NCBI RefSeq assembly: GCF_000260965.1
Contig: NC_017856.1
Location: 300,001 to 332,000, forward strand
Origin: Methylophaga frappieri
GTDB lineage: Bacteria > Pseudomonadota > Gammaproteobacteria > Nitrosococcales > Methylophagaceae
Length of the DNA stretch: 32,000 bases
Reading direction: 5' to 3'
The notes beneath the pieces are model-generated. The model had not been told where the DNA came from, did not search any database, and worked only from the letters and a program-made list of their open reading frames with translations. Below, in pieces: positions 1 to 26,129 of this stretch. Numbering within the stretch: position 1 is the first letter of the stretch; every line of letters starts with the position of its first letter. A program made the translations under genes and the position numbers.

Positions 1-515
1 GATAATCCTTTCCCAAGAGCATTAGCGGCTATTGTGGCAAGCGTAGCGTCTTTACTGTAGGTGAGAGGTAGTAAATTAACGGATTTAGTGCTGAAGAAAA
101 CGAAACCAAAACGGTCATCTGGTCGCTTGCGAACAAACTCGGTCAGGTAATCTTTCGCTATCCGACGCTTTGAGTTATCCCCTCCCACGCTTACCGCAGC
201 CGCTTGCGTTTTCACGGCAAAAGGATCATCCATGCTTCGACTTCGATCCAGTAACAGGACAATCTCAGCGCCTTCACCTAACCGTTCTACTTTTTTTTCT
301 GGCACTTCTGGCGCGGCTAAAGCCAGCAGTAAGCTAGCCATCGCTAGTGTTGTCATACTTTTTAAGAAAATACTGATAAACCGTGAAACAGGATCATTGG
401 GAACCAAAGATACCCAGGCAACCGTTTTATCAAGATTATGATTAAACCAAGGGAGAAGCGCTAACGGTAAAAGTAATAACCAATACGCAGCATCCCACTG
501 TAATCCGAACAGCAT
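1..515 (-). CDS. VWA (von Willebrand factor A) domain protein, BatA-like; 3' end runs off the window
   Basis: Not in the ORF track because it is open to the window edge. My translation of the minus strand from the ATG at 515-513 gives MLFGLQWDAAYWLLLLPLALLPWFNHNLDKTVAWVSLVPNDPVSRFISIFLKSMTTLAMASLLLALAAPEVPEKKVERLGEGAEIVLLLDRSRSMDDPFAVKTQAAAVSVGG..., with no stops. It has N-terminal hydrophobic helices followed by a DxSxS MIDAS motif (LLLDRSRSM). Its start overlaps the upstream stop (TGATG). Confidence 0.65.
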   Translation of the reverse strand, partial: MLFGLQWDAAYWLLLLPLALLPWFNHNLDKTVAWVSLVPNDPVSRFISIFLKSMTTLAMASLLLALAAPEVPEKKVERLGEGAEIVLLLDRSRSMDDPFAVKTQAAAVSVGGDNSKRRIAKDYLTEFVRKRPDDRFGFVFFSTKSVNLLPLTYSKDATLATIAANALGKGL

Positions 516-1381
516 CATGCCAATTTCTCCCGACGACGGCAGTCCTTAGCTAATTGGTGCAATGCATTAAAATTCTGTTGTTCGGCTTGCTTATCACTAA
601 AAAAATGCGCCGAGGAATCAGTAAAAAACTGGCTTATTTCTGCATGAAGAGGGCGTAACCAAGGACATTTCTGCCATAGCGTCTCCAGATTACTTACCAC
701 AAGGACACGATCTGCACTTTGATTAAAAGCAGCATGCAGTATTCGACTGGCCTCTTCCGTATCTGACTGACCAAACCACCGTAGTTTATTCAACGCAAAA
801 ACAGCATGCGCAAAAGGTAAGCGGCGTCTTGGCCTTAAGCCTATGTGCCAAGCGACATAAATCAACAAACTCGCTAATAGGACCCCAGCAGCCAACCAGC
901 TATTACGAACCCAAGACTGCTCGTTAATCATGGTGGTCGCTATATCCGGTTGTGAAACAAAAACGCCATCACTGTTAAGCGCATTTTCTGGTAAAAAGGA
1001 ACCGATTTGGACAGTAGCGCCGGTTACCGCTATCAACTCACCGCTCAAGGTTCTCAACTCGAAACTTGGCGTCAGCACCTCACGGTGATTAGCTGGAACG
1101 TTCACGACCTGAAGTGCCATGATCAATTGACTTTCTTTCAAGTCACTTTCTTTCAAGTAAAACCAGTCACCATGCCGCTTTTGTCGTTGCGGTAAACTCC
1201 TTTCGTCAACCGTAACATTTTCTGGAAGCGCAATCTTTAACGTCAAATTATCGCCGATCAAGAGACCAATTTGACGTTCGGCCGTCGTTGTTGCTGTTAA
1301 TTCGTATTGAATCTGACCAGCGTCATTTGCTGACAACGTTGTTGTGAGTATGAAACCAATAAAGACTATGGCAAAACGCAT
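515..1381 (-). CDS. hypothetical membrane-anchored protein of the MoxR/DUF58/VWA operon
   Basis: 288-aa ORF with a signal-like N-terminus (MRFAIVFIGFILTTTLSA) and one central TM helix (WLAAGVLLASLLIYVAWHIGL). It sits between the DUF58 and VWA genes with short or overlapping junctions. I recognise no catalytic motif. Confidence 0.6.
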   Translation of the reverse strand: MRFAIVFIGFILTTTLSANDAGQIQYELTATTTAERQIGLLIGDNLTLKIALPENVTVDERSLPQRQKRHGDWFYLKESDLKESQLIMALQVVNVPANHREVLTPSFELRTLSGELIAVTGATVQIGSFLPENALNSDGVFVSQPDIATTMINEQSWVRNSWLAAGVLLASLLIYVAWHIGLRPRRRLPFAHAVFALNKLRWFGQSDTEEASRILHAAFNQSADRVLVVSNLETLWQKCPWLRPLHAEISQFFTDSSAHFFSDKQAEQQNFNALHQLAKDCRRREKLA

Positions 1382-1393
1382 TTTTTTGGATTC

Positions 1394-2290
1394 CTAAGAC
1401 TTTTTCATAGCAAAAAAATATGCCGTAAGCTGTTGTGGCGACACGGTATCTCGAACATAAAGTGGTTTGAATTGATACCGCCTAAAGCAGGCATCCAACT
1501 TGGCAAAATGTGACATGCGTTGATTTAGCCAACGCTTGCGCAAACTTGGTCTCATCCACACACTATGTCGCTGACCCGTTTCCGCATCCCGTGTTTCTGT
1601 CCACCCGGCATGAGAAGGAAACAGATCTACGTCATCGTGCTGCCATACAATTGGGATAACCGTAAAATGTGCCAATTTACGTAAAGTCCGTTCTACCAAC
1701 GACACATCACAGCAAAAATCCGATACTAAAAATACCAGGGCGCGCTTGCTATTAATGACCCCAGCAGCATTCAACATGCCCTCTGCACCAGGCTTCAACG
1801 CTTGATTCGACCTAAGAATTTTGTCTGCTGCAAATGCTGGCATACTGCGTTGTCTGGTGGGCATAATTGAGACATCCTGTCTCCACACATGGTCAAACCC
1901 GGTCATAGCGAACTGATCGCCCAAACCAATAGCACTGTAAGCAATCATTTGCGCCAACTCTGCCAGACGTTTTTTATTTGCTGTGGCTAAAACCATTGAT
2001 TGACTCATGTCCGCTAACAACCACAAGGTAATTGAGGATCGTTGCTGATAACGGCGAACCAACCAACGATGCTGGTCATGTTGCGTTGAGTCTATGGCTT
2101 GACTACGAATACTCGCCCGTAAATCCAGTCGTCGCGGATCTGGATAATCAAACAAGTCGGCAAAACCCGCGAACCGATCTCCGCTTCCCATCGCTGAACC
2201 GCTATGTGCGCCAGGAATATGACCAAACACTTTATCCGGAAACCGATAGAAAAATTCCTGCATCGGCAGGTTTGATGGCTTTGTCACCAT
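1394..2290 (-). CDS. DUF58 family protein (VWA-like, MoxR partner)
   Basis: 298-aa ORF directly downstream of the MoxR ATPase (3-nt gap). It has a degenerate VWA-like core (LWLLADMSQSM ... ALVFLVSDF), typical of DUF58 proteins encoded next to MoxR. Confidence 0.7.
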   Translation of the reverse strand: MVTKPSNLPMQEFFYRFPDKVFGHIPGAHSGSAMGSGDRFAGFADLFDYPDPRRLDLRASIRSQAIDSTQHDQHRWLVRRYQQRSSITLWLLADMSQSMVLATANKKRLAELAQMIAYSAIGLGDQFAMTGFDHVWRQDVSIMPTRQRSMPAFAADKILRSNQALKPGAEGMLNAAGVINSKRALVFLVSDFCCDVSLVERTLRKLAHFTVIPIVWQHDDVDLFPSHAGWTETRDAETGQRHSVWMRPSLRKRWLNQRMSHFAKLDACFRRYQFKPLYVRDTVSPQQLTAYFFAMKKS

Positions 2291-2293
2291 GAT

Positions 2294-3313
2294 TTAAGGT
2301 GTCGCAATTTTATCGCGCAAAGCTGTTACGAATTCCGGCATGATTTGTTCGCGCCGACTTTCATATACTGGCGTTAAAAATACGCGATGGGTCATGGTAG
2401 GAAGCAAGACGGCATGAATATCATCAGGTAAAACATGCTCACGACCGGCCAACCAAGCGCATACTTTAGCGGCTCTTACCATAGCGGACATACCTCGTAC
2501 GCTTGCACCTGCGACAACCAAATCTTCAATAAATATATCGGCCATTTCAATGCCATACTGATGCGGCTGCCAACTTGCATCCCAAAGTTTCACCACATAG
2601 TTTTCAATTTCAGTTGAAACATAAATAGATTTTTGAATGAGTCGATCAACCTCATTGAGCGCCTTGTAATCTACTAACGCCGGCTCTATGTTTTCTAGTA
2701 ATTGATTTACGTCATGGAAAGCAGGATCAAAAATCAGCTTGCGACGTTGCGCATCATCTCGTGGCCGACTAATGCTAATTTCAAACAAAAAACGATCCCG
2801 CGCCGCGGCGCTGAGTTCAAACGTCTCTTCTTTTTCTACTGCATTCCGATCAGCAAAAACGACCATATGCGGGAAAAGATATTCTTTACCAAACGCCTCA
2901 ACACTCCGTTCTGCCATTGCACGAAGCAATAATGATTGGACCTGAGGGCGAGCACGATTAATTTCATTAAAGAAAAACACGGCCGTTTCTTCGCCATGCG
3001 CAATCAGTGGTCCCGGATCGATGACAGGTTTGCCATCTGCATCTACCCACGCACTATAGAGTAAATCATTAGGCATTAAGTCAACACTGCCTTCGATGCG
3101 ACCAAAGGCACCGCCTAATGCGCGTGAAAATGCACGTAAAATGGTTGTTTTACCAACACCGACTCCCCCTTCAAGCAATACATGTCCTCGCGCATGCAGG
3201 GCCACCATGATTAATCGAACCGCTTCCTCCTGCCCAATCACCACTTGATTTATGGCCTGCTCAAGCGATAACGCTTGCTGCCTTGCTGATTCAAGTTGTT
3301 GCAAACCGATCAT
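2294..3313 (-). CDS. MoxR-family AAA+ ATPase
   Basis: 339 aa with Walker A GGVGVGKT and Walker B-like VFFFNEINR. The overall MoxR layout (QEEAVRLIMVALHARGHVLLEGGVGVGKT) and the C-terminal lid region are present. Confidence 0.85.
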   Translation of the reverse strand: MIGLQQLESARQQALSLEQAINQVVIGQEEAVRLIMVALHARGHVLLEGGVGVGKTTILRAFSRALGGAFGRIEGSVDLMPNDLLYSAWVDADGKPVIDPGPLIAHGEETAVFFFNEINRARPQVQSLLLRAMAERSVEAFGKEYLFPHMVVFADRNAVEKEETFELSAAARDRFLFEISISRPRDDAQRRKLIFDPAFHDVNQLLENIEPALVDYKALNEVDRLIQKSIYVSTEIENYVVKLWDASWQPHQYGIEMADIFIEDLVVAGASVRGMSAMVRAAKVCAWLAGREHVLPDDIHAVLLPTMTHRVFLTPVYESRREQIMPEFVTALRDKIATP

Positions 3314-3352
3314 GAATACTCCCTACCCTTTCATTTTGATAATTCCAGTCAA

Positions 3353-3763
3353 TTAATTTATTGACCAAGCGTATTTCAAAAAACTGATACCAACCCAAGT
3401 AAAGCCAATGGTCGTAATGACAAAGCTGATTGCCGAAAAAATCTTCCAACGCACTTTATTCCAAAACTCTGGATCGAATGCTGCTATGACAAAAATGGTG
3501 GGATTCGTAAAACCACCTACGGCAACACACCAACATGCAACACTAGCCAACTCAATCCCCGCCCCTTTTGCCGCACCATAAAAACCCAGGCTGAATAATG
3601 CCATTAAGGCATAATCAACATGCGCTCTAATCATGGTTTTATAGTCAACTAAAAAATCCCCATCAATACCCTGTATGGGAAACCATCTCGCAAAGGTCAT
3701 CAGCCACGCTGATAAAATCAATGCGGCCATCATCGCAACAGCACCTATCAATAACACTGACAT
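3353..3763 (-). CDS. small integral membrane protein, unknown function (about 4 TM)
   Basis: The ORF track gives 3353-3850. I prefer the internal ATG at 3763 (MSVLLIGAVAMM...) because it has a perfect AAGGAG Shine-Dalgarno 6 nt upstream. The protein is hydrophobic throughout. Confidence 0.55.
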   Translation of the reverse strand: MSVLLIGAVAMMAALILSAWLMTFARWFPIQGIDGDFLVDYKTMIRAHVDYALMALFSLGFYGAAKGAGIELASVACWCVAVGGFTNPTIFVIAAFDPEFWNKVRWKIFSAISFVITTIGFTWVGISFLKYAWSIN

Positions 3764-14476: not shown

Positions 14477-14561
14477 GCCGGGGTGGCGGAACTGGTAGAC
14501 GCGCCGGATTCAAAATCCGGTTTCTTCGGAAGTGTGGGTTCGATTCCCACCCTCGGTACCA
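14477..14561 (+). tRNA. tRNA-Leu (anticodon CAA), encoded CCA end
   Basis: Folded by hand. The acceptor stem is GCCGGGG/CCTCGGT with two G-U pairs. The anticodon arm is CCGGA-TTCAAAA-TCCGG, giving anticodon CAA. There is a long variable arm (TTTCTTCGGAAGT), a T arm GTGGG-TTCGATT-CCCAC, discriminator A and CCA. Confidence 0.9.
14531..14561. repeat. attL-like direct repeat (3' end of tRNA-Leu)
   Basis: AGTGTGGGTTCGATTCCCACCCTCGGTACCA is repeated at 20801-20831 with a single mismatch (T14539 versus G20809). Similarity continues weakly downstream (ACTTT) if one gap is allowed. Confidence 0.85.
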
Positions 14562-14688
14562 ACTTTCACATCAACCATATTTTTCCTTCTAAATAAGTAG
14601 GTTAAAAATCTCCAGGTAGAGCTTGTGTCCAACACATGTGGACTACAGATCACTTAACAGCTTGGATTTAGATTTGATGGTCTATGGC

Positions 14689-14889
14689 TCAAGGTTCTGG
14701 GCCAATCTCATTGTCCTTTGATTCAGCCATATCCTTGAGAAGCTCCTCAGCTAGAGCTCTTTCATCTTTTTCACCTAGTTTGGCCGTTCTGCTGAGACGA
14801 TGACCAGTTACAGTCAGCATTCCATCATCAACACTGTACTCTGCTGCAAAACGTTTTCCATCAAGCTCAATCTCAACAATTTCTGCCAT
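14689..14889 (-). CDS. small acidic hypothetical protein (66 aa), island cargo
   Basis: ATG with an AAGGA Shine-Dalgarno 7 nt upstream. The protein is MAEIVEIELDGKRFAAEYSVDDGMLTVTGHRLSRTAKLGEKDERALAEELLKDMAESKDNEIGPEP, with a predicted beta N-terminal half and an acidic helical tail. I recognise no family. Confidence 0.5.
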   Translation of the reverse strand: MAEIVEIELDGKRFAAEYSVDDGMLTVTGHRLSRTAKLGEKDERALAEELLKDMAESKDNEIGPEP

Positions 14890-14919
14890 GTTCTATCCTT
14901 GTTCAATATTAGCGTTTTG

Positions 14920-14938
14920 AAGACAAAAGTTTTGTCTT
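14920..14938. promoter_or_regulatory. perfect 9+9 palindrome between the S8 protease stop and the 66-aa ORF
   Basis: AAGACAAAA-G-TTTTGTCTT. It could be an operator for the small ORF's promoter or a weak terminator hairpin for the protease gene. There is no clean T tract. Confidence 0.35.
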
Positions 14939-14956
14939 AATTGGTACACCCTTTAT

Positions 14957-17140
14957 TTATACTTGGAGTCGGATCTCTTGTCTGAGCGGTATTGGTGACA
15001 AAGTCTGATATTCCTGCCTAATTGCATTGTATACCTCAGGGGTATTCTTGACTTGAACAGTTACTACTAGTGCATAAGGCAAAGCATCACCATCAGAGTA
15101 TGGCGAGTGGCCCATTTCGCGAGCTTGATAGACCACATCGAAGCAAGGTTTATCCAAAGAAGTGTTTCTAAATGCTTGCTCTTTATGCAAAGTAGTTTCC
15201 CACTTGTGCCCATCTGTTCTAAATTCTTGTTCAGTCGGGTACAGACTTTTCAGATTAAAAAATGACTTTGTCGAATCTGCGTTGTGCTTTGGCCTAAAAG
15301 TCACTACTAAACCACTTCTCGTGTAATTTATCGGGTGCTCAGGATCTATATCTGAAGCAAAACAGAACGTTGCTTTGATGGTCACATTTCCCTTTAACTC
15401 TATACTCGGGAATGGCAAAGGAATTCTCACATACTGCGATGTTGTTAACTCACCTCTGTAGACAACAGTTACCTCATTATCATCACAATAAACAACGTTA
15501 TTTAGATCACTATTAAAACGCCCCCACCCCACTTCCTTCTTATCATGCTGGGATTTTTCAACATTGTGAATCATCAAAGCCTTTACAGCTAAAGCGCTCA
15601 TGTCATGTTCTAGCGACGACTTAATCGCAATAGCATTCCTCAGAACCAATGGAGCCGCAAAACTAGTTCCCGCTGTATGAACCAGCGAGTTGTTGTACGG
15701 AGAAAATAACGTAAAGGGTTTGATACTATCCCCACCGAATGCAACACCATCGGGCTTTACTATTCCAGGGGCTCTACCTGGTCCGATACAACTGTAGCTT
15801 GCCCGCTTCCATCCAGCATGGCACGTATCCGCTGCACCCACCGAGAGTCCATTTACTAGGTCGGCTGGTGGTTGAATACGGTTTTGTCCTTCTATTTCAC
15901 CATCATTTCCGATAGCGATCGTTGCTAATGATTTTCCCGTAGCTAAATACTTGTCGAGTTTTGATGTCCAGACATGAACTTCGTCATCCTCAATCGGAAC
16001 TCTGGGTCCGAGGCTTAAGTTGAAAAAATCATATTGCTTTTCTTCCAGAGCTGTTGTGATTCGTCTTAACACATCGAATAAATCAGGATCTCTCCCAGTA
16101 ACAGTATCCAGAACCCTATAGTGATCAACATTGCAATATGGAACCGGAAGAGACACTGTGTTCTCATCACATACGCCAAACAACACTGTTGATGTTACAT
16201 CGGCACCGTGCTTGAGCAGTTCAGGTGAAGTTCTATGTCCAGTGTCGTAGATAACCTCGTCACACCAGCGATCAATGGTGTTAGTTCCCACGCCACCGTC
16301 AAAAACAGCTACCCGAATGTCTGGATTTATTGCATCTTTATCAGGGAGAGCAGGTTGAGTTTTTGAGGATAGAATATTTCTCAAAATTTGAGGCTCATTT
16401 ACTCGCAATGTAGGTAGATCTCGTAGCACTCGCAAGAAAGTAAACTTTGCAAGTTCTATTGCTCCAGCAAAGTCCGCTATCACAGGTAGGAATGTAAGCC
16501 CACCGACATTCACGCTACGGTCGATATCAACACTACTGTTGCATGTCTTCGCAAACTCATAAAAACAGTCCAAAATTTCACTACTGTGGCCATCTGGCGT
16601 GTGCAAAACAACCTCCAGAAGCCTGTCATTGATCTCAGTGTCCAGTTTGCGAATTTTGTCTTCCGGCTGAAAGTCGTCTAGCTCTTCTATCTTAATGACA
16701 TCGTTCATCGTGCCTCTTGCCATCTCCTCTGTCTCAAGGGCACTCAGAAAACACGAAAAATCACCCTCAGTCCCTGCCAAATACAGGCACGATGTTTCGA
16801 GATTCTCTTTTTTAATTTTTGTGGTCTGTTTCCTTGGGGTAACTCTGACTGATTTACTACCAATGTCACTCAGATGAAATGCCCTTAGGAGGTTCTCTGG
16901 ATAATAGGACTTTGCTAGATATGCTGGGTGAAGAGTGACTCTTGCAACACTCCTCCCACCGGGTTTGGCTAGCTCTGGTAGATCATGTGAGCGTCCGATA
17001 AATTGAGACGTCTGCTCAGTCAAGATGCCTTTTACATCACTGAAACTATATGGATGAGACTTTGGGCCTCCACTTGATGGTCTATCAATGTTGTAAGTTA
17101 GAGTTTCACCAAACCCAAGTAATAAGTTTTTCTGGCTCAT
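14957..17140 (-). CDS. cytoplasmic S8 (subtilase) family serine peptidase with large unassigned N- and C-terminal regions; IetS-like
   Basis: 727 aa with no signal peptide. The catalytic set is in canonical S8 order: D281 (RVAVFDGG), H311 (KHGADVTS), N412 (IGNDG) and S493 (GTSFAAP). Its ATG overlaps the ATPase stop (ATGA at 17137-17140). Confidence 0.85.
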   Translation of the reverse strand: MSQKNLLLGFGETLTYNIDRPSSGGPKSHPYSFSDVKGILTEQTSQFIGRSHDLPELAKPGGRSVARVTLHPAYLAKSYYPENLLRAFHLSDIGSKSVRVTPRKQTTKIKKENLETSCLYLAGTEGDFSCFLSALETEEMARGTMNDVIKIEELDDFQPEDKIRKLDTEINDRLLEVVLHTPDGHSSEILDCFYEFAKTCNSSVDIDRSVNVGGLTFLPVIADFAGAIELAKFTFLRVLRDLPTLRVNEPQILRNILSSKTQPALPDKDAINPDIRVAVFDGGVGTNTIDRWCDEVIYDTGHRTSPELLKHGADVTSTVLFGVCDENTVSLPVPYCNVDHYRVLDTVTGRDPDLFDVLRRITTALEEKQYDFFNLSLGPRVPIEDDEVHVWTSKLDKYLATGKSLATIAIGNDGEIEGQNRIQPPADLVNGLSVGAADTCHAGWKRASYSCIGPGRAPGIVKPDGVAFGGDSIKPFTLFSPYNNSLVHTAGTSFAAPLVLRNAIAIKSSLEHDMSALAVKALMIHNVEKSQHDKKEVGWGRFNSDLNNVVYCDDNEVTVVYRGELTTSQYVRIPLPFPSIELKGNVTIKATFCFASDIDPEHPINYTRSGLVVTFRPKHNADSTKSFFNLKSLYPTEQEFRTDGHKWETTLHKEQAFRNTSLDKPCFDVVYQAREMGHSPYSDGDALPYALVVTVQVKNTPEVYNAIRQEYQTLSPIPLRQEIRLQV

Positions 17141-18246
17141 AAGCTGCTTCCTTGCTCAACTTTAGTAATTAAAGTTTTAATAAATCCTCTTGAGACTCCT
17201 AAAGCCTCAGATATCTTCCTCTGAGATACTCCCTGTCCTGTAAGGTTAATAACTTGAAAATCTCTCGTTAAATGTTCGTCATGACTGACGTGAGTTTCAC
17301 GCACCTTGAACTCTTTGAGAAGTTCAACACTGTATGGTGTTTGGTTCAGTATCGAGCTTTTTCTAGCATATGCAAGTCGCTTTTCAATATTCGCGAAAGA
17401 GCTTCCAACAACAGCCAGTGATAGAATACTCGCCAGCGACTCATGAACACCTTTCATCCTTATGAATTCTCTGATGTTCCTTGCATCCGGGATATCAAAG
17501 CGTATGACCTTATCAAACCTTCTCCAAACAGCAGGGTCGAGCAACTCACCATGATTAGTCGCTGCTATGAGAATTGATGTTGAGGGCCAATCATCAATGG
17601 ATTGTAAAAGTACTGTTACGAGACGCTTTAACTCACCAACATCAGTATCGTCGTCACGCTTTTTAGCGATGGAATCAAACTCGTCTAATAGTAAGACGCA
17701 AGGGAAAGACATAGCGTAGTTTAAAACTGCTCTGATGTTGTTACCTGTTTTACCAAGAAAGCTACTCATAACAGTAGCAAGGTCTAATGTGAGAAGAGGT
17801 AAATCAAGGGATTGTGCCAGCCACTTTGCTGCGAGAGTTTTACCTACTCCAGGTGGCCCCTCTAGCAACATGGATCGAGAAGGAAGAAGCCCTTGCTCCA
17901 TTAGTTTTTCAGCACCTTCACGCTCCCTGATAAATAAGTCCAAGTCATAAGACACATGCTCATCCCAGAATGGATTTATTGTGAGAATTACTGGATAAAT
18001 TTCACTCACTAAGTGCTGTCGTGTATCACTATCAACTGGCACCGGCCCCTTCTCTCTAGTAACTCCTCTCAAAGCAGTATCACTTCCAATTAACTGATTT
18101 AAATGGCTGACAAAGTCTGGGTCCTTTGAGCGTAAGCTACTTGCAATCCGTCTAACCCTCATGCCAAGACTATCGATATTTCCAGACAAACCATCCTTGA
18201 TTAAGTCGATCAACAACTCACTTTTGATGGAAACACTTTTTGACAT
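17137..18246 (-). CDS. classical AAA+ ATPase with a C-terminal HTH-like tail; IetA-like
   Basis: The ORF track starts at TTG 18267. The ATG at 18246 (MSKSVSIK) has a GGAGG 8 nt upstream and is the likelier start. Numbering below follows the ORF track. Motifs: Walker A GPPGVGKT (137-144), Walker B LLLDEFD (192-198), sensor-1 N238 (AATN), R249/R250 (PAVWRRFD) and the tail GVSQRKISEALGVSRGFIKTLI (346-367). Confidence 0.85.
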   Translation of the reverse strand: MSKSVSIKSELLIDLIKDGLSGNIDSLGMRVRRIASSLRSKDPDFVSHLNQLIGSDTALRGVTREKGPVPVDSDTRQHLVSEIYPVILTINPFWDEHVSYDLDLFIREREGAEKLMEQGLLPSRSMLLEGPPGVGKTLAAKWLAQSLDLPLLTLDLATVMSSFLGKTGNNIRAVLNYAMSFPCVLLLDEFDSIAKKRDDDTDVGELKRLVTVLLQSIDDWPSTSILIAATNHGELLDPAVWRRFDKVIRFDIPDARNIREFIRMKGVHESLASILSLAVVGSSFANIEKRLAYARKSSILNQTPYSVELLKEFKVRETHVSHDEHLTRDFQVINLTGQGVSQRKISEALGVSRGFIKTLITKVEQGSSL

Positions 18247-18721
18247 TATGGCACCCTCCATGACCAATATTGGTACTTATATTAATGCAAAAACACCATT
18301 TTTTAATCGCACCAACTATTTTTGGTACATTATGAGCGACACAATGGAACAGGTAAAGAATAATTTTTAAATATTACTAGGAAGGCGGATCGTCCTCAGG
18401 TACTCCCCAAAGTTAATCACCAAATGAAATAAAGAAAGAGAATAATATGGTTTCATCAAGCATGGTATTCATGAACTAGGCCACCTTCATTGGTATTGAT
18501 TTTATCCACTATCGGACAAGCCTCCTGCTGCTCTCGCCGACAAGCAACACAGCAAGAAGTTAAGTTAATAGCGAATACGTCAGCATGAGAGAGCGAATAA
18601 AGATTCTAGTCTTCACAGCAAGGCTGCCATCCCCCCCCTTCCCTATGAGTTCTATAAAGAACCATGCGGGGGTAGAGGGGGAAAGCTACAAACTGTAGTG
18701 GTCTGGTAAGGCCTGACTTAT

Positions 18722-19600
18722 CTAGACACTTTTCATATTCTGAAAATACCGTCGCTCATACTCATTAGGTGATGTTCTACCATTGCTTGTATGTCGACGA
18801 GTTGGATTGTAAAACATTTCGATGTAATGAAATATTGCTTGTCTGGCTTCCTCCCTGTTTTTGTAGATACTACGCCTGATTTTTTCTTTCTTCAGATTGC
18901 TGAAAAAACTTTCAGCCACCGCATTATCCCAACAGTTTCCACGTCGAGTCATGCTCGCTTCAATATTCAAAGTATCGAGTAACTTTCTGAATCTTCGACT
19001 GGTGTATTGTGAACCCTGGTCAGAGTGCAACCTGACTCTCTGGCCCGGCTTTCTCCGCCAATAGGCCATGGTCAGTGCATCCAAGGTTAGGTCATCGGTG
19101 ATCCGATGCCCCATCGCCCACCCAACGATGTTTCGAGCATACAAATCCATCACGACTGCCAGAAACAAGAATCCTTAGTGGGTGTGGATATAGGTAATAT
19201 CGCTCACCCACCACTGATTCGGCTTTTCCACATCAAATTCGCGTTGTAGCTGATTCGCTGTTTTTATATCTGGAACGCCACTGTAATACCCTTTAGGTGT
19301 TTTATAGCCACGCTGTGCTTTTAAACCCGCTTCTCGCATCAGACGTAATACTCGGTCTCGCCCACAATTAATTCTGGCCTCTTTCAAATCCAGATATATA
19401 TTGCGATAGCCATAATGGCCTCCACTTTCCAGCCAGAACTGCTTGATACTGGGGATGAGACGCTTATCCTGTTGTTGCCGATAACTGATGGGCTGCTTTA
19501 GCCAAGCATAGTAGCCACTCGGGTGAATACCTAAAGCACCACACAATAAGCGTACCGGATAATAACGACTACGAGCTTTTACGAACGGGTAGCGTTCTTT
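18722..19600 (-). pseudogene. IS3-family transposase OrfB (DDE), interrupted by an in-frame TAA
   Basis: The -1 frame is open from a candidate A-AAG slip site (minus strand, about 19600-19597): ...GSK/ERYPFVKARSRYYPVRLLCGALGIHPSGYYAW.... The DDE residues are present (WVSDITYI; LHSDQGSQYTS; NAVAESFF). The frame reads ...YIHTH-TAA-GFLFLAVVMDLY, with the stop at 19175-19177 where relatives usually have Glu or Gln. Confidence 0.75.
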
Positions 19601-19875
19601 GACCCGCTGGCAAAGAACACGGCGGCTTCCTTTAGGATGTCTCGCTCTTGTTGGGCACGTTTAAGTTCACGTTTCAGACGGGCAACCTCGACCTGTAAAT
19701 CCTGCTCTGACTGCCGCTGCTTGCTTGGTTTTGAATAGAGCTTCATCCATTTGTATAGGCTTTTTGTACTGACGCCTAGACGGTTGGCGACGTCAGCAAC
19801 TTCATAGCCATGAATGGTGATTTGATTGACTGCTTCTTGCTTAAATTCGTCCGTGTATCGGATCCCTGTTCCCAT
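19579..19875 (-). CDS. IS3-family transposase OrfA (HTH + leucine zipper)
   Basis: 98 aa: YTDEFKQEAVNQ...GYEVADVANRLGVSTKSLYKWMK, then a coiled coil (LQVEVARLKRELKRAQQERDILKEAAVFFA). This is typical IS3 OrfA. Confidence 0.85.
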   Translation of the reverse strand: MGTGIRYTDEFKQEAVNQITIHGYEVADVANRLGVSTKSLYKWMKLYSKPSKQRQSEQDLQVEVARLKRELKRAQQERDILKEAAVFFASGSKNATRS

Positions 19876-19906
19876 GTTTGACCTCTTATGGTTTTAGTTA
19901 CATTTT

Positions 19907-20362
19907 TTACCATAAAAAGTGTCTACTGTTCTCAGGCCTTACCAGTTTATTCTCCAAGAAAAATTTCTTACGCTGAGTAGTGATATATGCATTCTCTCGC
20001 TCGCTACCGTTTTGATACCAGTGCCCATCTGCAAAAGTTACCTGTCCATACCAATCTTTGAGCTCGATGACCAGGATATTGTGATGAGTAATAATGACGA
20101 GGTCATACTCACCCTCGTAGTCTTTACCCTTTTTATTCTTCCCTGCGAATCGAAAGCCAGCATAGCCTTTCCAAGGAAACATATTCGAAACACCAGCTGC
20201 TTGTAATGCAGTTGCTAAACTGTTCCCACTATAGCGGATGTTTTGTTGCTCAGCATTACCACTGCCTGTTTGAACAAAAGCACGTGAGATCCGGTCAAGA
20301 GCTCTTTCCTCGTGCAACTCCAGACCGCCAGGATAGCGTTTGATTTCCATTTTCTCTTCCAT
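19907..20362 (-). pseudogene. NERD (nuclease-related domain) protein gene, interrupted by the IS3 element after about codon 140
   Basis: The NERD core is GEYDLVIITHHNILVIELKDW. The last 11 codons (VRPENSRHFLW-stop) are read from the IS left inverted repeat, which begins at 19943. Confidence 0.65.
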
Positions 20363-20800
20363 ATTTAGTCCATTGAGCCGCTAACCGATGATCGGGTGCT
20401 TGAATATCAGTAGCTTGATTAATTCTGTTTTATGGTGTCATCCAAAAGACGATAGCTCAAAAACTCTATCTCAACTATAAGAACGACTCAACACTGAAGA
20501 TTCTGAAGTTATCGAGATATGGTGACTTTAATCTTTGCTTAAAAGAAAACAACAAAGTCTGCCCTGTAAACGTAAATTTAGAATCTCCAAATTTTATACG
20601 TTTTTAAAACTAATCAGTGCTGTGCTAGCAAGTAATTTCAGAACTCTAGATACAAAAATGATACCCAAACTGGTACATAGCTTGGTACACAAAACTAGCA
20701 TTTTGGAAAATAAACCGTTAATATATAACTAAAATAACGCCGATAAGCGACTGTTTTTATTGGTAGTAAGTTTATTTGTCAAGGTTTTAACAAGTGGTTC

Positions 20801-20831
20801 AGTGTGGGGTCGATTCCCACCCTCGGTACCA
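20801..20831. repeat. attR-like direct repeat (orphan copy of the tRNA-Leu 3' end)
   Basis: AGTGTGGGGTCGATTCCCACCCTCGGTACCA matches 14531-14561 at 30 of 31 positions. There is no upstream tRNA body, so it is not a second tRNA gene. Confidence 0.85.
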
Positions 20832-20885: not shown

Positions 20886-21671
20886 TTAAAAACGCCAGAC
20901 AACCAGCCCTTGGACAGCACGTTCATCGCTATCATCACCCAGCTTGTTTTGCCACCATTGGTATTCGATACCGGCAAACAGAACGTCTTGCCGGTTAAAT
21001 AAGGCATACCCCATATCCCAACGAAACTGGGGTTGAGCAAGGATCCAATGCCTGACCGGTGAACCAAATTCATCATGCCGGCTACCGATGTATTCGATAT
21101 GCCCTTCAAATGAGAATCGCTGCTGGCCTAACGTAAAAGGCACCCCCCAGTTAACATCAATCATATAACTGTCAGATTCTTTTGGCGCGCCTCCATTACG
21201 CAGGCCTTTGCTGTCATCAATATAGGCCGTAATGTCAGTATTAAAAAAATGAAACCCCGGCAAACGCCATGAAAAACGAAGGCCTGGCAAATACTTCAAC
21301 ACCTTTGCTTCTCGGGCGTAGTTAATACCACCAATGATGCTGACATCTTTTAACCATCCGAGCGTCAAATCACGACCCGACATTTTGCTCAGACTCAAGG
21401 CACCGTAGTATTCAAGATACAGATCGTTATCATTGAAACCGTCATCCCGGTCATCATTGAGGTAATCAGCAAAGAAAAAATGTTCGCCATATTGCCAGCC
21501 ACTTGCGTGCTGTAAAGTCAGAATATCGGTCTGACTTTTTACGCCACCAGCAAACCCCGGGCTTTTCAGCGCACCACGTTGCCACTGCAACTCCGTCACT
21601 GACCAATCCAGCGCCATCACCCTGCCGGGCGACATTAATATCATGAGTAAGAGTAGCGCGGTGTATTTCAT
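20886..21671 (-). CDS. outer-membrane beta-barrel protein, Tsx/OmpK-like
   Basis: I prefer the ATG at 21671 (MKYTALLLLMILMSPGRVMA, a signal peptide) over the ORF-track start, which overlaps the upstream gene. The sequence shows alternating aromatic/polar beta-strand patterning, many Trp/Tyr/Asp residues, and a C-terminal ...GLVVWRF with terminal Phe. Confidence 0.65.
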   Translation of the reverse strand: MKYTALLLLMILMSPGRVMALDWSVTELQWQRGALKSPGFAGGVKSQTDILTLQHASGWQYGEHFFFADYLNDDRDDGFNDNDLYLEYYGALSLSKMSGRDLTLGWLKDVSIIGGINYAREAKVLKYLPGLRFSWRLPGFHFFNTDITAYIDDSKGLRNGGAPKESDSYMIDVNWGVPFTLGQQRFSFEGHIEYIGSRHDEFGSPVRHWILAQPQFRWDMGYALFNRQDVLFAGIEYQWWQNKLGDDSDERAVQGLVVWRF

Positions 21672-21694
21672 AAAACCGTTATCTCGGCCTCTTT

Positions 21695-23680
21695 CTATGA
21701 CAGACAAAAACCAATCACACAAATATCATCTCGTTGAGCGTAAGCATCGGCCTTCCAACTATCAAGAAAATGTCGAATCGCCTCACCTTGCTCGGCCAGC
21801 GGATAGCTATTAGCAGAACGAATTGCCGCTTCAAAATCTTTAAAGCGTAGCCCGTAGCCATTATCACCACCCGGCTGATCCAGATAGCCATCCGTTGTCA
21901 GATAAAAATTCAGCCCCTGACAATCTGTTAGCACGGTATCAGTAAAAATATGTGGCTTTCGGCCCACTAATTGACGACGTGCCCCTTTGTATTCTGTCAA
22001 CGCCTGCCCATTCCAAGCGTAAAGCGATAATTTAGCACCCGAAAACGTCACTTTCTGGTCTTGGCTATCCATGACCACCAATCCGGCATCCATATTGGTA
22101 GCGAGCCCCCTTGGCAGTTCAAGATCCAACAGCATACCTCTAAGCACCTCATCCATTTTCTGTAACAAGGCCGCCGGTGATTGTAAGCCATGTTCACGAA
22201 TCGCATGATCCAGGGCTGCTCTTGCCAGCATGGTCATTAAAGCACCAGGCACACCATGTCCAGCACAATCTACTAATCCTAGCAGCTGTTGTTTGCCAGC
22301 TTGATGATACACATAGAAGTCGCCCCCGACGGTGTCGCGCGGCAGCCAGACAATGCAACACTGGCCAGACAGATTTCGCTGCATGGTCATGTCCGGCAGA
22401 ATGGCTTGTTGTATCAACCGGGCATAATCAATCGAGTCATTAACCATTTTATTGATTAAGGCAATCTCGCGACTGCTCTCTTGCAAGTCGCGTGTGCGTT
22501 CCTGCACCTTTGATTCAAGCTCATGGGTGTGCGATTGAATAGTTTGTATCATTTGCGAAAAGGCACGAGACAAGTCACCAATCTCATCACTGGTTTGCGC
22601 AGGAAGATTGACGTCATACTGTCCTTGAGCCAGCGCATTAGCAGAGCTTTGCAACTTGCTGAGTGGCTGAATCAAGATACGCTGCACCGAAACGGCTAAG
22701 GCAAGGATAATCAGTAAAATAACAGCGCCCACCCCCAGTAAGATGGTATACCACCATTTGCCACTCACCACTTCAGCAACATCCAGATTGATTAATGACG
22801 CAACATACCAGTCCAGTTCGGCAATAAAGGTCATCACCAACAAATGGGGCGTACCGTCAACATCGACATCGACCAGTTGAACCGTTTCTGTGTTTCGCTG
22901 GTTAAGTAACTCTGACACCGTCGCCTGATCGGCTAACGAGACCAGATCGGACAGTTGCTTACCCTGGTTATCCAGTCCCGCCCCGCTACCATAAGCAATT
23001 AACGATGCATCAGGATGGGCCTGAATAAACCCCTCCGTATCTACCGCCATCGTCGTCACCCCGGCCTCACTTTGCAGCAATTGGCTTATGAAGCGGGTTA
23101 GGTCAAGCCCGGTCCCGACCAGGCCAAGTTTTTGTCCTTCAGCAAAAACCGGTACATTAAACCAAACTCGGGTGGTGCCCAGTTGTTGATCTGGGTTGAC
23201 ATTAATACTGTATTTTTCATCACTGGCCATGATGTTAAAAAACCAGCCATCATCAAGCTTGTCTGAGGACAGCTGATAGCTTGGCGTTTGGGCAGTCATT
23301 TCACCACTATCATCAAAATAATAGTTTTTGCTCTGTGCATGAATCGCAAAATACGCTTGCTCATCAAAACTCTGCCGATAGGAATTAGCTTCCATAAAAA
23401 AGGCGGCGGCCTTATTTTGGTTAGTTTCTTCGGCAAACCAGTCTCGAGTAACGCTGGCACGCGCAAACTGCTGACTTAACAGCAGCTCCCGACTGACTGG
23501 TGCCCGAATTTTATAACGATTCAGTTCCGCCAGATTTTCAGCATAATTAATGGCCAGATCTTTGTGCACTTGCTGAAAAACCTGCCAGGTAATCAGACTT
23601 GCTGGCAAAAGAATAATCAATAGCACCAGAATGAGTGCCGTCAGCGCCTTATTGCGCAGCCCCATTTTCAACAATGCCAT
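21695..23680 (-). CDS. membrane-bound PP2C/SpoIIE-type phosphatase with periplasmic sensor and HAMP (SiaA-like)
   Basis: 661 aa. TM1 is followed by a ~280-aa periplasmic region, TM2, and HAMP (PLSKLQSSANALAQGQYDVNL...DEIGDLSRAFSQMIQTI). The PP2C motifs are GGDFYVY and VDCAGHGVPGA. Confidence 0.8.
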   Translation of the reverse strand: MALLKMGLRNKALTALILVLLIILLPASLITWQVFQQVHKDLAINYAENLAELNRYKIRAPVSRELLLSQQFARASVTRDWFAEETNQNKAAAFFMEANSYRQSFDEQAYFAIHAQSKNYYFDDSGEMTAQTPSYQLSSDKLDDGWFFNIMASDEKYSINVNPDQQLGTTRVWFNVPVFAEGQKLGLVGTGLDLTRFISQLLQSEAGVTTMAVDTEGFIQAHPDASLIAYGSGAGLDNQGKQLSDLVSLADQATVSELLNQRNTETVQLVDVDVDGTPHLLVMTFIAELDWYVASLINLDVAEVVSGKWWYTILLGVGAVILLIILALAVSVQRILIQPLSKLQSSANALAQGQYDVNLPAQTSDEIGDLSRAFSQMIQTIQSHTHELESKVQERTRDLQESSREIALINKMVNDSIDYARLIQQAILPDMTMQRNLSGQCCIVWLPRDTVGGDFYVYHQAGKQQLLGLVDCAGHGVPGALMTMLARAALDHAIREHGLQSPAALLQKMDEVLRGMLLDLELPRGLATNMDAGLVVMDSQDQKVTFSGAKLSLYAWNGQALTEYKGARRQLVGRKPHIFTDTVLTDCQGLNFYLTTDGYLDQPGGDNGYGLRFKDFEAAIRSANSYPLAEQGEAIRHFLDSWKADAYAQRDDICVIGFCLS

Positions 23681-23709
23681 GTTTTCGGTGTCTCCCGCGC
23701 CTGCATGCT

Positions 23710-24531
23710 TCAGGCAATTCGAATACAGTTACGACCAGCCTGCTTGGCCTGATATAAGGCATCATCAGCACGTTTGATGGTTTCATCAAAGCTTTCATTG
23801 GTCTGGAAAACCGTCATCCCGGCACTGAAAGTAATCTCGTTTATGACTGTGAAATCAAGGTTATTCCCCGGTAAGTGTGTTTGCCATGGAATAGCGCGAA
23901 CCTCATGTAAAATACGCTCTACCATTTGCTCAGCCGATTCCAGTGCCAGATCTGGCACAATCAGTAGAAACTCCTCACCGCCCCAGCGACTGCAAACATC
24001 TGTTTTTCTGGCGCCTTTTTTGAGAACTTTCGCAACGACTTTCAGTACCATGTCGCCGAGCTCATGACCGAACTTGTCATTAATCGCTTTAAAATGATCA
24101 ATATCAATCAGTGCCAAGCAAAAAGGCGTCTGTTTACGTTGGTAAATCGCTTCCAGTTCTTTTAAACGATTGATGGCAAAACGCCGGTTAGGCAGATCCG
24201 TGAGCAAATCATGTTGCGCGTGGTATTCAAGTTGCTCATTCATATCAACCATATTTTTCTGATACATATCAGAGATACGAGCAATTTTTTGCAGGCGGCG
24301 GAGTTGCTTGCCAAACTGCTCACGCAACTCACTATTTTCTTGAAATGTCAGGCCGTCAAACGCATCGGAAATACGCATAAGTTTTTGCAACTGTCGCTTG
24401 TGTTCCTGCGTTTCGTCGTATAACCGTTTCACCACCGGCATCAGCGGATTATCATTGAGTTTCGGATCTTGAAGAATCCGCTCAATTTCCGGATCTTGAG
24501 GCATTAATTTTGCAGAAGATTGTTTTGTCAA
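23710..24531 (-). CDS. diguanylate cyclase (GGDEF) with coiled-coil N-terminus (SiaD-like)
   Basis: 273 aa. The active site GGEEF is intact and an RxxD I-site (RKTD) lies five residues upstream. Also present: DIDHFKAINDKFGH. Confidence 0.85.
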   Translation of the reverse strand: MTKQSSAKLMPQDPEIERILQDPKLNDNPLMPVVKRLYDETQEHKRQLQKLMRISDAFDGLTFQENSELREQFGKQLRRLQKIARISDMYQKNMVDMNEQLEYHAQHDLLTDLPNRRFAINRLKELEAIYQRKQTPFCLALIDIDHFKAINDKFGHELGDMVLKVVAKVLKKGARKTDVCSRWGGEEFLLIVPDLALESAEQMVERILHEVRAIPWQTHLPGNNLDFTVINEITFSAGMTVFQTNESFDETIKRADDALYQAKQAGRNCIRIA

Positions 24532-24563
24532 AACTGACCTGCCAATTTGGTTGTTACGCGCTA

Positions 24564-24944
24564 TTATCTGGCTTGTATTCTGAAAGGAAAGCTGCAGTCT
24601 TCCATAAATTCTTCAACCATTTCGACCACGCGCTCATTCAACGGATCGTAAAACCAAACCACTTCCATTTGTTTACCTTCCGTATAAGCCTCTTCCATCA
24701 TATCAAACAGATCCATCATCGCTTTAACACTACTGGTGTTCATATAAGCGATCTGTAGTTGCATCATCAGGACGCGATCCGACTCATTCAGAAACTGCTC
24801 TACCCAATCAAACACCGGCGTAAAAAACTCGTACGAGTTTTCAGGGTAAGAGTCGCCTTCAATAACAAATTTGCCCGTATCCGGTTCAGCCAGGACATGG
24901 GGTGTATTTTTAGTTTGTTCTAAACTTAATGTTTGCAAATTCAT
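24564..24944 (-). CDS. DUF1987 / SiaC-like partner-switching protein
   Basis: 126 aa. The start TPHVLAEPDTGKFVIEGDSYPENSYEFFTPVFDWVEQFL matches my recollection of the DUF1987 family. It is encoded between the kinase-like and GGDEF genes. Confidence 0.6.
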   Translation of the reverse strand: MNLQTLSLEQTKNTPHVLAEPDTGKFVIEGDSYPENSYEFFTPVFDWVEQFLNESDRVLMMQLQIAYMNTSSVKAMMDLFDMMEEAYTEGKQMEVVWFYDPLNERVVEMVEEFMEDCSFPFRIQAR

Positions 24945-24958
24945 AACTGTTCTTAGCG

Positions 24959-25498
24959 TCAGATTGTTGCCAGTATACTTAAAAAAGCCTTGCCCTGACC
25001 GGCATCATTTAAGGAGCATGACAAGGGCGCTGAAGATTTTCGGCTAATGTCGATAAGGCCAAGTCCTGCTCCTGATCGGGTCGTTTTATCACGCGGCATT
25101 CGCAGCTGCTTTTTGAAAGCCGCTTTCAGTTCGACTTTATCTAGAGTTGATAAGGATTCGATTTGTCGCACCATTGTTTGTCCGTCTTCTGGCTCGATAA
25201 TATTGCCCGCCATCACTTGATAACCAGTACCATTATGCGCAACGACAACCGTGGCAGAGCTTAACAATTCGGAGTAGCCCTGCTCCTGCGCGTAATGACG
25301 AATATTTTGGGTCAGTTCGATATAGACGCCAAATACATCCATGGCCAGAGTTGGCTCCGTCGCTTCCGTATGCAAATGGTTTTTTAACGCGTCGCCAAGC
25401 TCTTGAATCAGGCCGCTGGATATGGGGCCGTTAAAACACAGCAGGATATTTTTTTCGTTTAACTCCTGCCGTAATGTCAACAGATTAATCGATTGCAT
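24959..25498 (-). CDS. SiaB-like anti-sigma-type serine/threonine kinase (HATPase-like fold)
   Basis: The ORF track gives 24959-25708, but the first 70 codons overlap bfr and its terminator. The ATG at 25498 (MQSINLLTLRQEL...) has an AGGA 7 nt upstream and gives 179 aa. A G-box-like GAGLGLIDISRKS lies near the C-terminus. Confidence 0.6.
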   Translation of the reverse strand: MQSINLLTLRQELNEKNILLCFNGPISSGLIQELGDALKNHLHTEATEPTLAMDVFGVYIELTQNIRHYAQEQGYSELLSSATVVVAHNGTGYQVMAGNIIEPEDGQTMVRQIESLSTLDKVELKAAFKKQLRMPRDKTTRSGAGLGLIDISRKSSAPLSCSLNDAGQGKAFLSILATI

Positions 25499-25591
25499 TA
25501 TGCATCCTGATTGGGTGGGTAAACTCCGAACTACTATACAACATTCAAATCTTAGCAACCTACTCGCTTGGTATTTTCTGAGATGATAGAC

Positions 25592-25622
25592 AAAAAAAAT
25601 CCCGAACCAGAGTTCGGGATTC
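25592..25622 (-). terminator. rho-independent terminator after bfr
   Basis: The minus strand reads AATCCCGAAC-TCTG-GTTCGGGATT followed by TTTTTTT. The 10-bp stem begins 28 nt after the bfr stop. Confidence 0.85.
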
Positions 25623-25649
25623 AAATGGCCTAGGTTTGTAAACTTTTTG

Positions 25650-26129
25650 TTATTCTGCTTCTTTGACGATTTGTGCCTGATGAAAGTTTTCAATACCCAT
25701 TTTGTCAATTAATCCTAACTGCGTTTCTAACCAATCGACATGTTCTTCTTCGGACTCCAGAATATGTTTCATCAGATCACGACTGACATAATCACCCGTC
25801 TGTTCACAATACTGGATCCCTGCTTTCAAATCAGGGATCGCATCCAGCTCTAAGGAAAGATCGGCTTCAAGCATCTCCCGTGTGTTTTCCCCAATGCGCA
25901 ACGCGCCGAGATCTTGCAGATTGGGCAGCCCCTCAAGAAATAAAATACGCTCGGTCAGCATATCCGCATGCTTCATTTCATCGATGGATTCATGATATTC
26001 ATGCTCATAAAGGTTTTTCAGCCCCCAATCCTTGTATATTTTGGCATGCAGAAAATACTGATTTATCGCGATCAGTTCGTTTCCTAACACCTTGTTTAAA
26101 ATCTCAATAACTTTTGTGTCACCTTTCAT
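25650..26129 (-). CDS. bfr: bacterioferritin
   Basis: 159 aa: [36 protein letters not shown]...[15 protein letters not shown]. The ferroxidase ligands and the haem Met context are conserved. Confidence 0.93.

Follow-up and report, generated by a model that had tools for sequence, protein, structure and literature searches.

An intact IetAS-type ATPase and subtilase operon on a decayed tRNA-Leu island of Methylophaga frappieri, with candidate operators for the helix-turn-helix of the ATPase

Two overlapping genes of the marine methylotroph Methylophaga frappieri, one encoding an AAA+ ATPase and the other a subtilisin-like (S8) protease, raise the question of whether such a pair serves phage defence, stabilisation of the DNA that carries it or ordinary protein turnover, and whether it is still functional. 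The genes lie on contig NC_017856.1 within positions 300,001 to 332,000; this whole stretch of 32,000 nucleotides is called the window, and positions are counted from its first letter. An earlier note, made from the DNA letters, had proposed an IetAS-like defence pair. Our analysis supports a functional-looking IetAS on a tRNA-Leu island that lacks an integrase and has been decayed by an insertion sequence (IS), a reading to which we assign a probability of roughly 0.8. The pair is an intact and ordinary copy of an already-described system, and its helix-turn-helix (HTH) is a typical rather than a distinguishing part of it. The two genes and their junction are as follows.

17137-18246, minus strand: ietA, AAA+ ATPase and presumptive antitoxin, 369 aa (open reading frame (ORF); Shine-Dalgarno (SD) sequence GGAGGG; Pfam AAA; PADLOC IetA)
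14957-17140, minus strand: ietS, cytoplasmic S8 subtilase and presumptive toxin, 727 aa (ORF; Pfam Peptidase_S8; PADLOC IetS)
17137-17153, minus strand: translational-coupling junction, SD AAGGAAG at 17147-17153 and ATGA stop/start overlap at 17137-17140

The ORF list gives ietA from TTG 18267 (17137-18267, minus strand; 376 aa). The start codon is most likely ATG 18246 (369 aa), because the GGAGGG sequence at 18254-18259 lies 8 nt 5' of this ATG, a palindrome encloses the TTG, and 369 aa is also the length of the deposited protein P0121. The ATPase residue numbers of the earlier note, counted from the TTG, therefore shift by -7, and the ATG numbering (TTG number minus 7) is used below except where indicated. 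Each of the two proteins has a deposited M. frappieri counterpart with 100% identity. The AAGGAAG SD of ietS is located within the 3' end of ietA, and IetA and IetS are produced from one translationally coupled operon. A scan with one genome per species found at least 518 loci, and among the best 80 of them ietA is directly upstream of ietS in all 78 that were testable. The distance from the ietA stop to the ietS start is between -35 and +21 nt across these 78 loci, except for one frameshifted locus, and the syntenic loci cover Proteobacteria, Planctomycetota, Acidobacteriota, Bacteroidota, Nitrospirota, Actinomycetota and others.

The Pfam and PADLOC profile searches proposed in the earlier note gave matches for both proteins. 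IetA matched Pfam AAA (E=4e-30) and the PADLOC IetA model PDLC02196 (E=4.4e-84), with residues 18-370 in TTG numbering on model positions 6-371 of 374, and IetS matched Pfam Peptidase_S8 (E=7e-20) and the PADLOC IetS model PDLC02197 (E=1.1e-42), with residues 61-714 on model positions 62-734 of 749. Three other PADLOC IetA models and five other IetS models also matched the respective proteins, and the best NCBIfam matches were the anti-phage ATPase IteA (NF042959) and the S8 family anti-phage peptidase IteS (NF042956). Matches that run nearly end to end bear out the proposed IetAS-like identity, and the pair is very probably an IetAS (Gao_Iet) module of the PDLC02196/PDLC02197 subtype.

The ATPase carries a complete set of AAA+ motifs, located in the following core.

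17347-17961, minus strand: AAA+ core of IetA, approximately aa 96-300 in ATG numbering (invariant alignment columns and motif positions)

These motifs include the Walker A lysine K136 within GPPGVGKT, the Walker B residues D188/E189, the sensor-1 residue N231 and the arginine fingers R242/R243, which correspond to K143, D195/E196, N238 and R249/R250 in TTG numbering. All of them are invariant among 54 aligned homologues, and every residue named in the earlier note for the two proteins, like the ATGA overlap between the two minus-strand ORFs, was recovered at its position. The pore-loop segment of the family, SS[F/Y/L]LGKTG, is conserved in the same alignment and reads SSFLGKTG in the window, with an aromatic residue or leucine at the pore-loop position followed by Leu-Gly; such a loop is compatible with a substrate-threading unfoldase. 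The AlphaFold2 model of IetA has a mean predicted local distance difference test (pLDDT) score of 87.7 and consists of an N-terminal region of three helices, the AAA+ module and an HTH at the end. Its Foldseek neighbours are FtsH, p97/Cdc48, the proteasomal Rpt/PAN ATPases and Vps4, and a sequence search of the PDB returned generic AAA+ proteins only, with E down to 1e-42. By its motifs and predicted fold, IetA belongs to the classical AAA+ clade, its pore loop and arginine fingers being intact, and it probably forms a hexameric unfoldase. A Pfam search with the isolated N-terminus (129 aa) gave no match even at E<=5. We also observed a conserved segment, PVDxDxRQ, at aa 70-77 (window 18016-18039) in the N-terminal linker, where the pLDDT is 50-63; it is a candidate interaction, pseudosubstrate or processing site.

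The protease can be divided into three parts downstream of its first 150 residues.

15506-16333, minus strand: catalytic subtilase domain of IetS, approximately aa 270-545 (D281, H311, N412, S493)
16406-16690, minus strand: α/β unit of IetS, approximately aa 151-245 (DSSP of the model, Foldseek)
14975-15493, minus strand: C-terminal β-sandwich of IetS, approximately aa 550-722 (β-rich AlphaFold2 model)

The catalytic residues D281, H311, N412 and S493 are invariant among 59 aligned homologues, and a profile alignment with hhalign placed them onto D32, H64, N155 and S221 of subtilisin BPN'. No signal peptide is apparent, with a top 12-residue Kyte-Doolittle mean of 0.68 within the first 60 aa, in agreement with the intracellular protease described earlier. 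The AlphaFold2 model is folded throughout (pLDDT 88.6, predicted TM-score 0.90), and within the α/β unit residues 173-241 show the β-α-β-β-α-β order of the subtilisin I9 propeptide according to DSSP. The unit is followed by a junction, P243-x-x-R246-x-x-x-P250-x-x-x-R254 (aa 243-254, window 16379-16414), that is nearly invariant in IetS homologues and is set by the profile alignment at the pro/mature cleavage position of subtilisin; it is another candidate interaction, pseudosubstrate or processing site. Foldseek aligned the IetS model with unautoprocessed pro-subtilisin E (3whi) over about 400 columns (target TM-score 0.71-0.73), with mature subtilisins over about 280 columns and with ProN-Tk-SP (3afg) over 562 columns. 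The top structural neighbours are the β-domain subtilases Tk-SP (3afg), KP-43 (1wmd) and SubHal (5fax), and conserved residues of the C-terminal part include T591, H602, E637, R641 and W647/E648. The predicted model thus resembles an unprocessed pro-subtilase, in which a propeptide-like unit precedes the catalytic domain and a β-sandwich follows it. The earlier note had recognised nothing in the two ends of the protein; Pfam indeed found no match to the isolated N-terminus (270 aa) or C-terminus (184 aa) even at E<=5, but both ends proved to be conserved family domains with subtilase-type structural neighbours. The PDB sequence search with IetS returned no IetS-like structure, only subtilisin DY at E=0.006.

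What the ATPase does beyond its partner is suggested by its C-terminal tail.

17167-17232, minus strand: C-terminal HTH of IetA, GVSQRKISEALGVSRGFIKTLI, aa 339-360 (weak Pfam HTH matches, conservation, AlphaFold2)

The Pfam matches of this tail to HTH_23 (E=0.005), Sigma70_r4 and HTH_28 are weak and below threshold, and AlphaFold2 places helices at residues 342-349 and 353-368. The HTH is kept in 54 of the 54 aligned homologues with the consensus SQRKI..LG.S(R/H)..(V/I), in which S341 and I345 are conserved at 90% or more. It is also included in PDLC02196, which the window protein covers out to position 371 of 374, whereas the 328-aa IetA of an Agrobacterium Ti plasmid, which stands for the founding pTiC58 type and is the only IetA found to lack the HTH, ends before it and covers the model only to position 322. 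Judged from these alignments, the tail is the norm of a large IetA clade to which the E. coli and Salmonella proteins also belong, and it marks no new subtype. The suggestion that the tail may define a distinct subtype therefore falls away, while the accompanying suggestion of autoregulation gained comparative support from the DNA upstream of ietA.

18329-18357, minus strand: ietAS promoter-like site, -35 TTTACC at 18357-18352, 17-nt spacer, -10 CATAAT at 18334-18329 (consensus match only)
18263-18326, minus strand: operator-like palindromes between the -10 and the start codon, ACCAAAAATAGTTGGT at 18326-18311 and ACCAATATTGGT at 18274-18263

Most antitoxins repress their own operon. The window has two ACCAA..TTGGT palindromes in the region from the -10 to the SD, and its -35 hexamer itself equals the family half-site TTTACC. 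To describe the family, 6-mers were scanned in the 130 nt 5' of ietA in 73 non-redundant loci. GGACTA was found in 29 of the 73 upstream regions against 1.5 expected (p about 1e-29), and ATGGTA/TGGTAA in 22-23 against 2-3 expected (ATGGTA: 22 against 2.3; p about 1e-14 to 1e-16). The density of TGGTA/TACCA was 9.0 per kb upstream of ietA and 1.4 per kb in the other intergenic DNA of the same loci (6-fold), and that of GGACTA/TAGTCC was 4.7 against 0.12 per kb (39-fold). The usual layout consists of two direct TGGTAAA copies, a -10-like box and then an inverted TTTACCA; another layout has an inverted pair, TGGACTAGTT...AACTAGTCCA, flanking the -35 box. The conserved family signal is thus a shorter half-site and not a full palindrome. 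The exact arrangement ACCAA-N(0-8)-TTGGT, considered as the family operator, was rejected as too specific, being present in the window and three Xenorhabdus loci only.

The half-sites are associated with the sequence of the HTH. The recognition helix SRDT[IL]R occurs in 27 of the 29 loci with GGACTA and in 2 of the 43 without the motif (Fisher 3e-15), and [ST][RH]PT[VI] is associated with TGGTA half-sites (Fisher 6e-8). Upstream of ietA in the Pf inovirus Pseudomonas phage PfAC08 (86-215) we found approximately four copies of TGCAACA, two of them forming a palindrome, together with the helix IHASTVSR; PfAC08 appears to be a third operator/helix pairing beside the TGGTA and GGACTAGT classes. 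Because the motifs are conserved across phyla and covary with the recognition helix, we consider it probable that the HTH of IetA represses its own operon through putative operators at the promoter and 5' leader. A scan 3' of ietS showed no convincing terminator.

Several observations weigh against this account and are taken together here. The NCBIfam scores stay below the equivalog cut-offs (IteA, 246 against 510 bits; IteS, 109.7 against 900 bits), and the pair is therefore a divergent family member and no orthologue of the reference proteins. Identity to the founding pTi pair is 35% for IetA (aa 9-253) and about 24% for IetS over part of the protein; with such identities and sub-cut-off scores, function is extrapolated across subtypes. 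The propeptide-like assignment is drawn from a predicted model and from Foldseek column counts, and neither Pfam nor hhalign, which aligned the catalytic domain alone, detected the unit. With regard to the promoter, a scan of the region yielded 9 sites against 8.4 expected, which is no better than chance, and the exact palindrome of the window recurs in one other lineage only, Xenorhabdus. The covariation of motif and helix mostly follows two clades and may reflect few independent events, and the recognition helix of the window, SRGFIK, is a rare variant shared with few relatives only, a point that bears on autorepression in particular.

Published work on relatives indicates how such a pair may act. 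The conserved pore loop, the membership of IetA in the substrate-threading classical AAA clade and the strict coupling of the genes would also suit a two-component ATP-dependent protease, in which an IetA hexamer unfolds phage proteins and feeds them to IetS for direct degradation without suicide. We regard this as improbable, given that S8 subtilases are monomeric open-cleft enzymes and form no self-compartmentalised chamber. The genetics of homologues also speak against it: in S025/S026 of Salmonella genomic island 1 (SGI1) and in the pair of plasmid pTiC58 the protease is toxic alone and the ATPase neutralises it (PMC5006074), and for ietHAS defence needs protease activity and an ietA mutant was unclonable (PMC13069673). 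A Bacillus cereus homologue acts by abortive infection with SPbeta yosG as trigger, and the culture collapses at high multiplicity of infection (10.1101/2022.08.27.505566). With toxin and antitoxin roles, abortive infection and a trigger thus in print, the statement of the earlier note that effector logic and trigger are undescribed does not wholly hold.

An abortive anti-phage function in M. frappieri is, by analogy with these homologues, slightly favoured. In the uninfected cell, IetA would neutralise the cytoplasmic subtilase IetS in an ATP-dependent manner, by homology to pTiC58, SgiAT and ietHAS, and its HTH would bind the repeated half-sites over the ietA promoter and 5' leader and keep the operon repressed. 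During infection, a phage product would disturb IetA, so that IetS is released or is activated from a pro-subtilase-like state. The freed IetS would then degrade essential proteins and lead to arrest or death ahead of phage release.

The surroundings of the pair were examined for the island and the conflict-system context that had been proposed from its position.

14477-14561, plus strand: tRNA-Leu(CAA), whose 3' 31 nt (14531-14561) form the left direct repeat
20801-20831, plus strand: right direct repeat, 30/31 nt identical to the 3' end of the tRNA-Leu
18703-19945, minus strand: IS3-family insertion sequence with 34-nt imperfect inverted repeats, single copy in the window
19946-20362, minus strand: NERD fragment, MkoA/PglW-like N-terminus (Pfam NERD 1e-10)

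Based on the 31-nt tRNA repeats, the island spans 14562-20831 (6.27 kb). Its GC content is 0.426, compared with 0.479 and 0.449 in the flanks, which consist of core genes: one flank has cysE-trmJ-queA, the opposite one a siaABCD-like operon. A blastx search of the unassigned island DNA (14562-14960, 18268-18702 and 19946-20831) against all ORFs of the related loci, aimed at remnants of an integrase or any other gene, gave no match. The tRNA-Leu island without integrase, the NERD fragment, the IS and the lower GC content are thus as the earlier note had described them. The IS3 element contains orfA at 19579-19875 (HTH_Tnp_1) and orfB (HTH_21 and rve), the latter with an in-frame stop at 19175-19177. 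No target-site duplication was found at the element, and this absence suggests that the IS mediated a deletion and did not simply insert. The NERD ORF (19907-20362, minus strand, 151 aa) runs into the IS end, its last codons being IS sequence, and it matches PADLOC MkoA at E=1.1e-27 over the first 105 of 1607 model positions. A second system, Mokosh- or BREX-kinase-like, was probably present on the island in the past, and the island is probably the decayed remnant of a small defence island.

Two other ORFs of the island were considered as partners of the pair and rejected. The NERD fragment is absent from 80 of 80 homologous loci, and so is the 66-aa ORF 3' of ietS (14689-14889, minus strand), considered as a third component. 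The latter has no Pfam or PADLOC match and six relatives only among 1.8 billion representative proteins, five of them of 64-91 aa; it is probably unrelated island cargo.

Decay of the island raises the possibility that the pair itself is a non-functional remnant. The missing integrase, the IS3 element with a nonsense codon in its transposase that truncates the NERD/MkoA-like gene and the absent target-site duplication would all fit this. Both ORFs, however, are full length in comparison with their homologues and keep all invariant residues, including those of the N- and C-terminal domains, and the SDs, the overlap and the promoter/operator region, which lies 436 bp downstream of the IS end, are intact. 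A dead pair is accordingly quite unlikely.

The same island would be expected of a pair that resists its own deletion, since IetAS is the sole intact cargo of an island that lacks an integrase and holds a truncated defence gene. The family was moreover first described in a stabilising role on pTiC58 and SGI1 (PMC5006074; PMC13069673). A pure addiction or stabilisation module that acts by post-segregational killing and has no anti-phage role in M. frappieri is possible, if on balance unlikely. The evidence for stabilisation was obtained with the HTH-less pTi/SGI1 subtype, with a pTi IetA of only 35% identity, whereas the subtype of the window is found in a P2-like phage, in a Pf prophage and near restriction-modification, Gabija and CBASS genes. 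Homologues were protective against phage in published tests, and the two roles are not mutually exclusive: as a property of a toxin and antitoxin, addiction would also make the island hard to lose.

Side observations on the surroundings concern the right flank and the tRNA genes. An apparent siaABCD-type cyclic di-GMP signalling operon at 21695-25708 (minus strand) encodes a dCache-HAMP-SpoIIE phosphatase, a GGDEF cyclase, SiaC and a DUF6272 protein, and is followed by a ferritin-like gene at 25650-26129. A 278-aa ORF at 20886-21722 with a signal-peptide-like start has no Pfam match. A tRNA lies within the fetched flanks of 13 of the 80 loci, including tRNA-Leu in Xenorhabdus, Enterobacter and Hyphomonas, and in a Planctomycetota metagenome-assembled genome 11 tRNA genes form an array about 4.5 kb away from an IetAS pair (93-2610).

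The distribution of the family bears on whether the pair belongs to conflict or to housekeeping. A protein search returned more than 2,000 IetS-like and more than 6,000 IetA-like proteins, the closest relatives being those of Alteromonas sp. KUL49 with 60-62% identity only. Homologues are scattered patchily across phyla and have no constant operon partners. In a survey of 134 immediate neighbours (±3 genes) at 23 loci we found six integrases, Mu- and P2-type prophage genes, and defence genes comprising a type I restriction enzyme, GajB and a CBASS cyclase with a 2TM effector; dCTPase, PD-T7-1, PDC-S05, Mza and Pbe were also among these neighbours. IetAS was found on 67 plasmids, in the P2-like Enterobacter phage phiT5282H (2922-6205), where it is flanked by replication-nickase and portal genes, and in PfAC08 (216-3526). 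The notes in the PfAC08 record swap the names, calling the ATPase IetS and the peptidase IetA.

An AAA+ protein together with a protease is a general design of cellular proteolysis, and the pair could on that ground be taken for cytoplasmic protein quality control or regulatory proteolysis. This is hardly credible for a pair that lies between tRNA-derived direct repeats in DNA with a GC content below that of its flanks, and whose patchily distributed homologues have unrelated neighbours, lack constant operon partners and occur on phages and plasmids. The variable neighbours of the 23 loci, with their integrases, prophage and defence genes and no housekeeping operon, uphold the preference of the earlier note for a conflict system.

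The abortive function favoured above leaves room for a more specific proposal on how the ATPase controls the protease. A tentative suggestion is that the target of IetA is the zymogen state or prodomain of IetS. Extending it, IetS may be a zymogen, with an I9-like prodomain and the residues P243-R246-P250-R254 in the cleft, whose state is set by IetA with ATP, coupled to transcription by the HTH and triggered by phage; this fuller scheme is doubtful. According to it, an IetA hexamer would use ATP to set the state of the IetS prodomain, or alternatively IetA would engage IetS through the disordered PVDxDxRQ segment. Through the HTH, operon transcription would respond to the level of free IetA, and titration or stalling of IetA by a phage protein would cause protease activation and operon de-repression together, in a feed-forward suicide circuit. 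If true, such an unfoldase-gated pro-protease switch would supply the missing mechanism of the family.

By itself the locus is of small significance, its contribution being one more host, a marine methylotroph, for a widespread, catalogued system. The family deserves attention, as papers of 2025-2026 (PMC11878078, PMC13069673) explicitly describe its anti-phage mechanism as unknown. Our literature search found no mechanistic or structural paper on IetAS and no mention of the IetA HTH, its operator motifs or a pro-subtilase-like IetS. The analysis offers candidate operator motifs for the HTH-bearing clade, namely half-sites of the TGGTA and GGACTAGT types, whose occurrence follows the recognition helix, and the pro-subtilase-like architecture of IetS suggests possible sites of inhibition and activation.

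Compared with known systems, the window pair is nearest to the IetAS of Enterobacterales (E. coli P0188, Salmonella P0019), which has the same gene order and the same best PADLOC models. Both follow the common plan of the PDLC02196/02197 subtype, with an IetA of about 360-370 aa made of N-terminal helices, AAA+ core and HTH and an IetS of about 725-735 aa. Amino acid identity between them is about 49-50%, and the window pair differs in its marine methylotroph host, its SRGFIK helix variant and its own palindromes. The pTiC58 IetA/IetS pair and SgiAT (S026/S025) of SGI1 likewise have the ATPase gene followed by the S8 protease gene, and in the pTi and window IetA proteins the N-domain and core align, with 35% identity over aa 9-253. 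The pTi IetA, however, has 328 aa and no HTH, and the window IetA has one, so the pair falls outside the pTiC58/SGI1 subtype. The pTi IetS has 836 aa and PDLC02198 as its best model (a subtype of about 800-840 aa, PDLC02198/PDLC04233), in contrast to the 727 aa and PDLC02197 of the window IetS, and the two align over part of the catalytic and C-terminal region only, with about 24% identity. The pTiC58/SGI1 pair has, in addition, been described as a plasmid and island stabilisation system and not as phage defence. The ietHAS system (Liu-DS4) combines IetA and IetS with an SNF2-type helicase; no helicase gene lies beside the window pair, which has an IS upstream and the 66-aa ORF downstream.

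Outside the family, Tk-SP of Thermococcus kodakarensis, KP-43 and pro-subtilisin E are the best structural neighbours of IetS beyond the catalytic domain, with equivalent catalytic residues. These enzymes are secreted with signal peptides, whereas IetS has none, carries about 150 extra N-terminal residues and shares sequence similarity with them in the catalytic domain only. The core, pore loop and arginine fingers of IetA belong to the same clade as those of FtsH, the PAN/Rpt-proteasome and Cdc48; in contrast to these, IetA has a single AAA module, and an HTH takes the place of the protease or adaptor domain. Its partner, finally, is a monomer-type subtilase that published genetics describe as toxic without the ATPase, unlike a proteolytic chamber that needs its ATPase.

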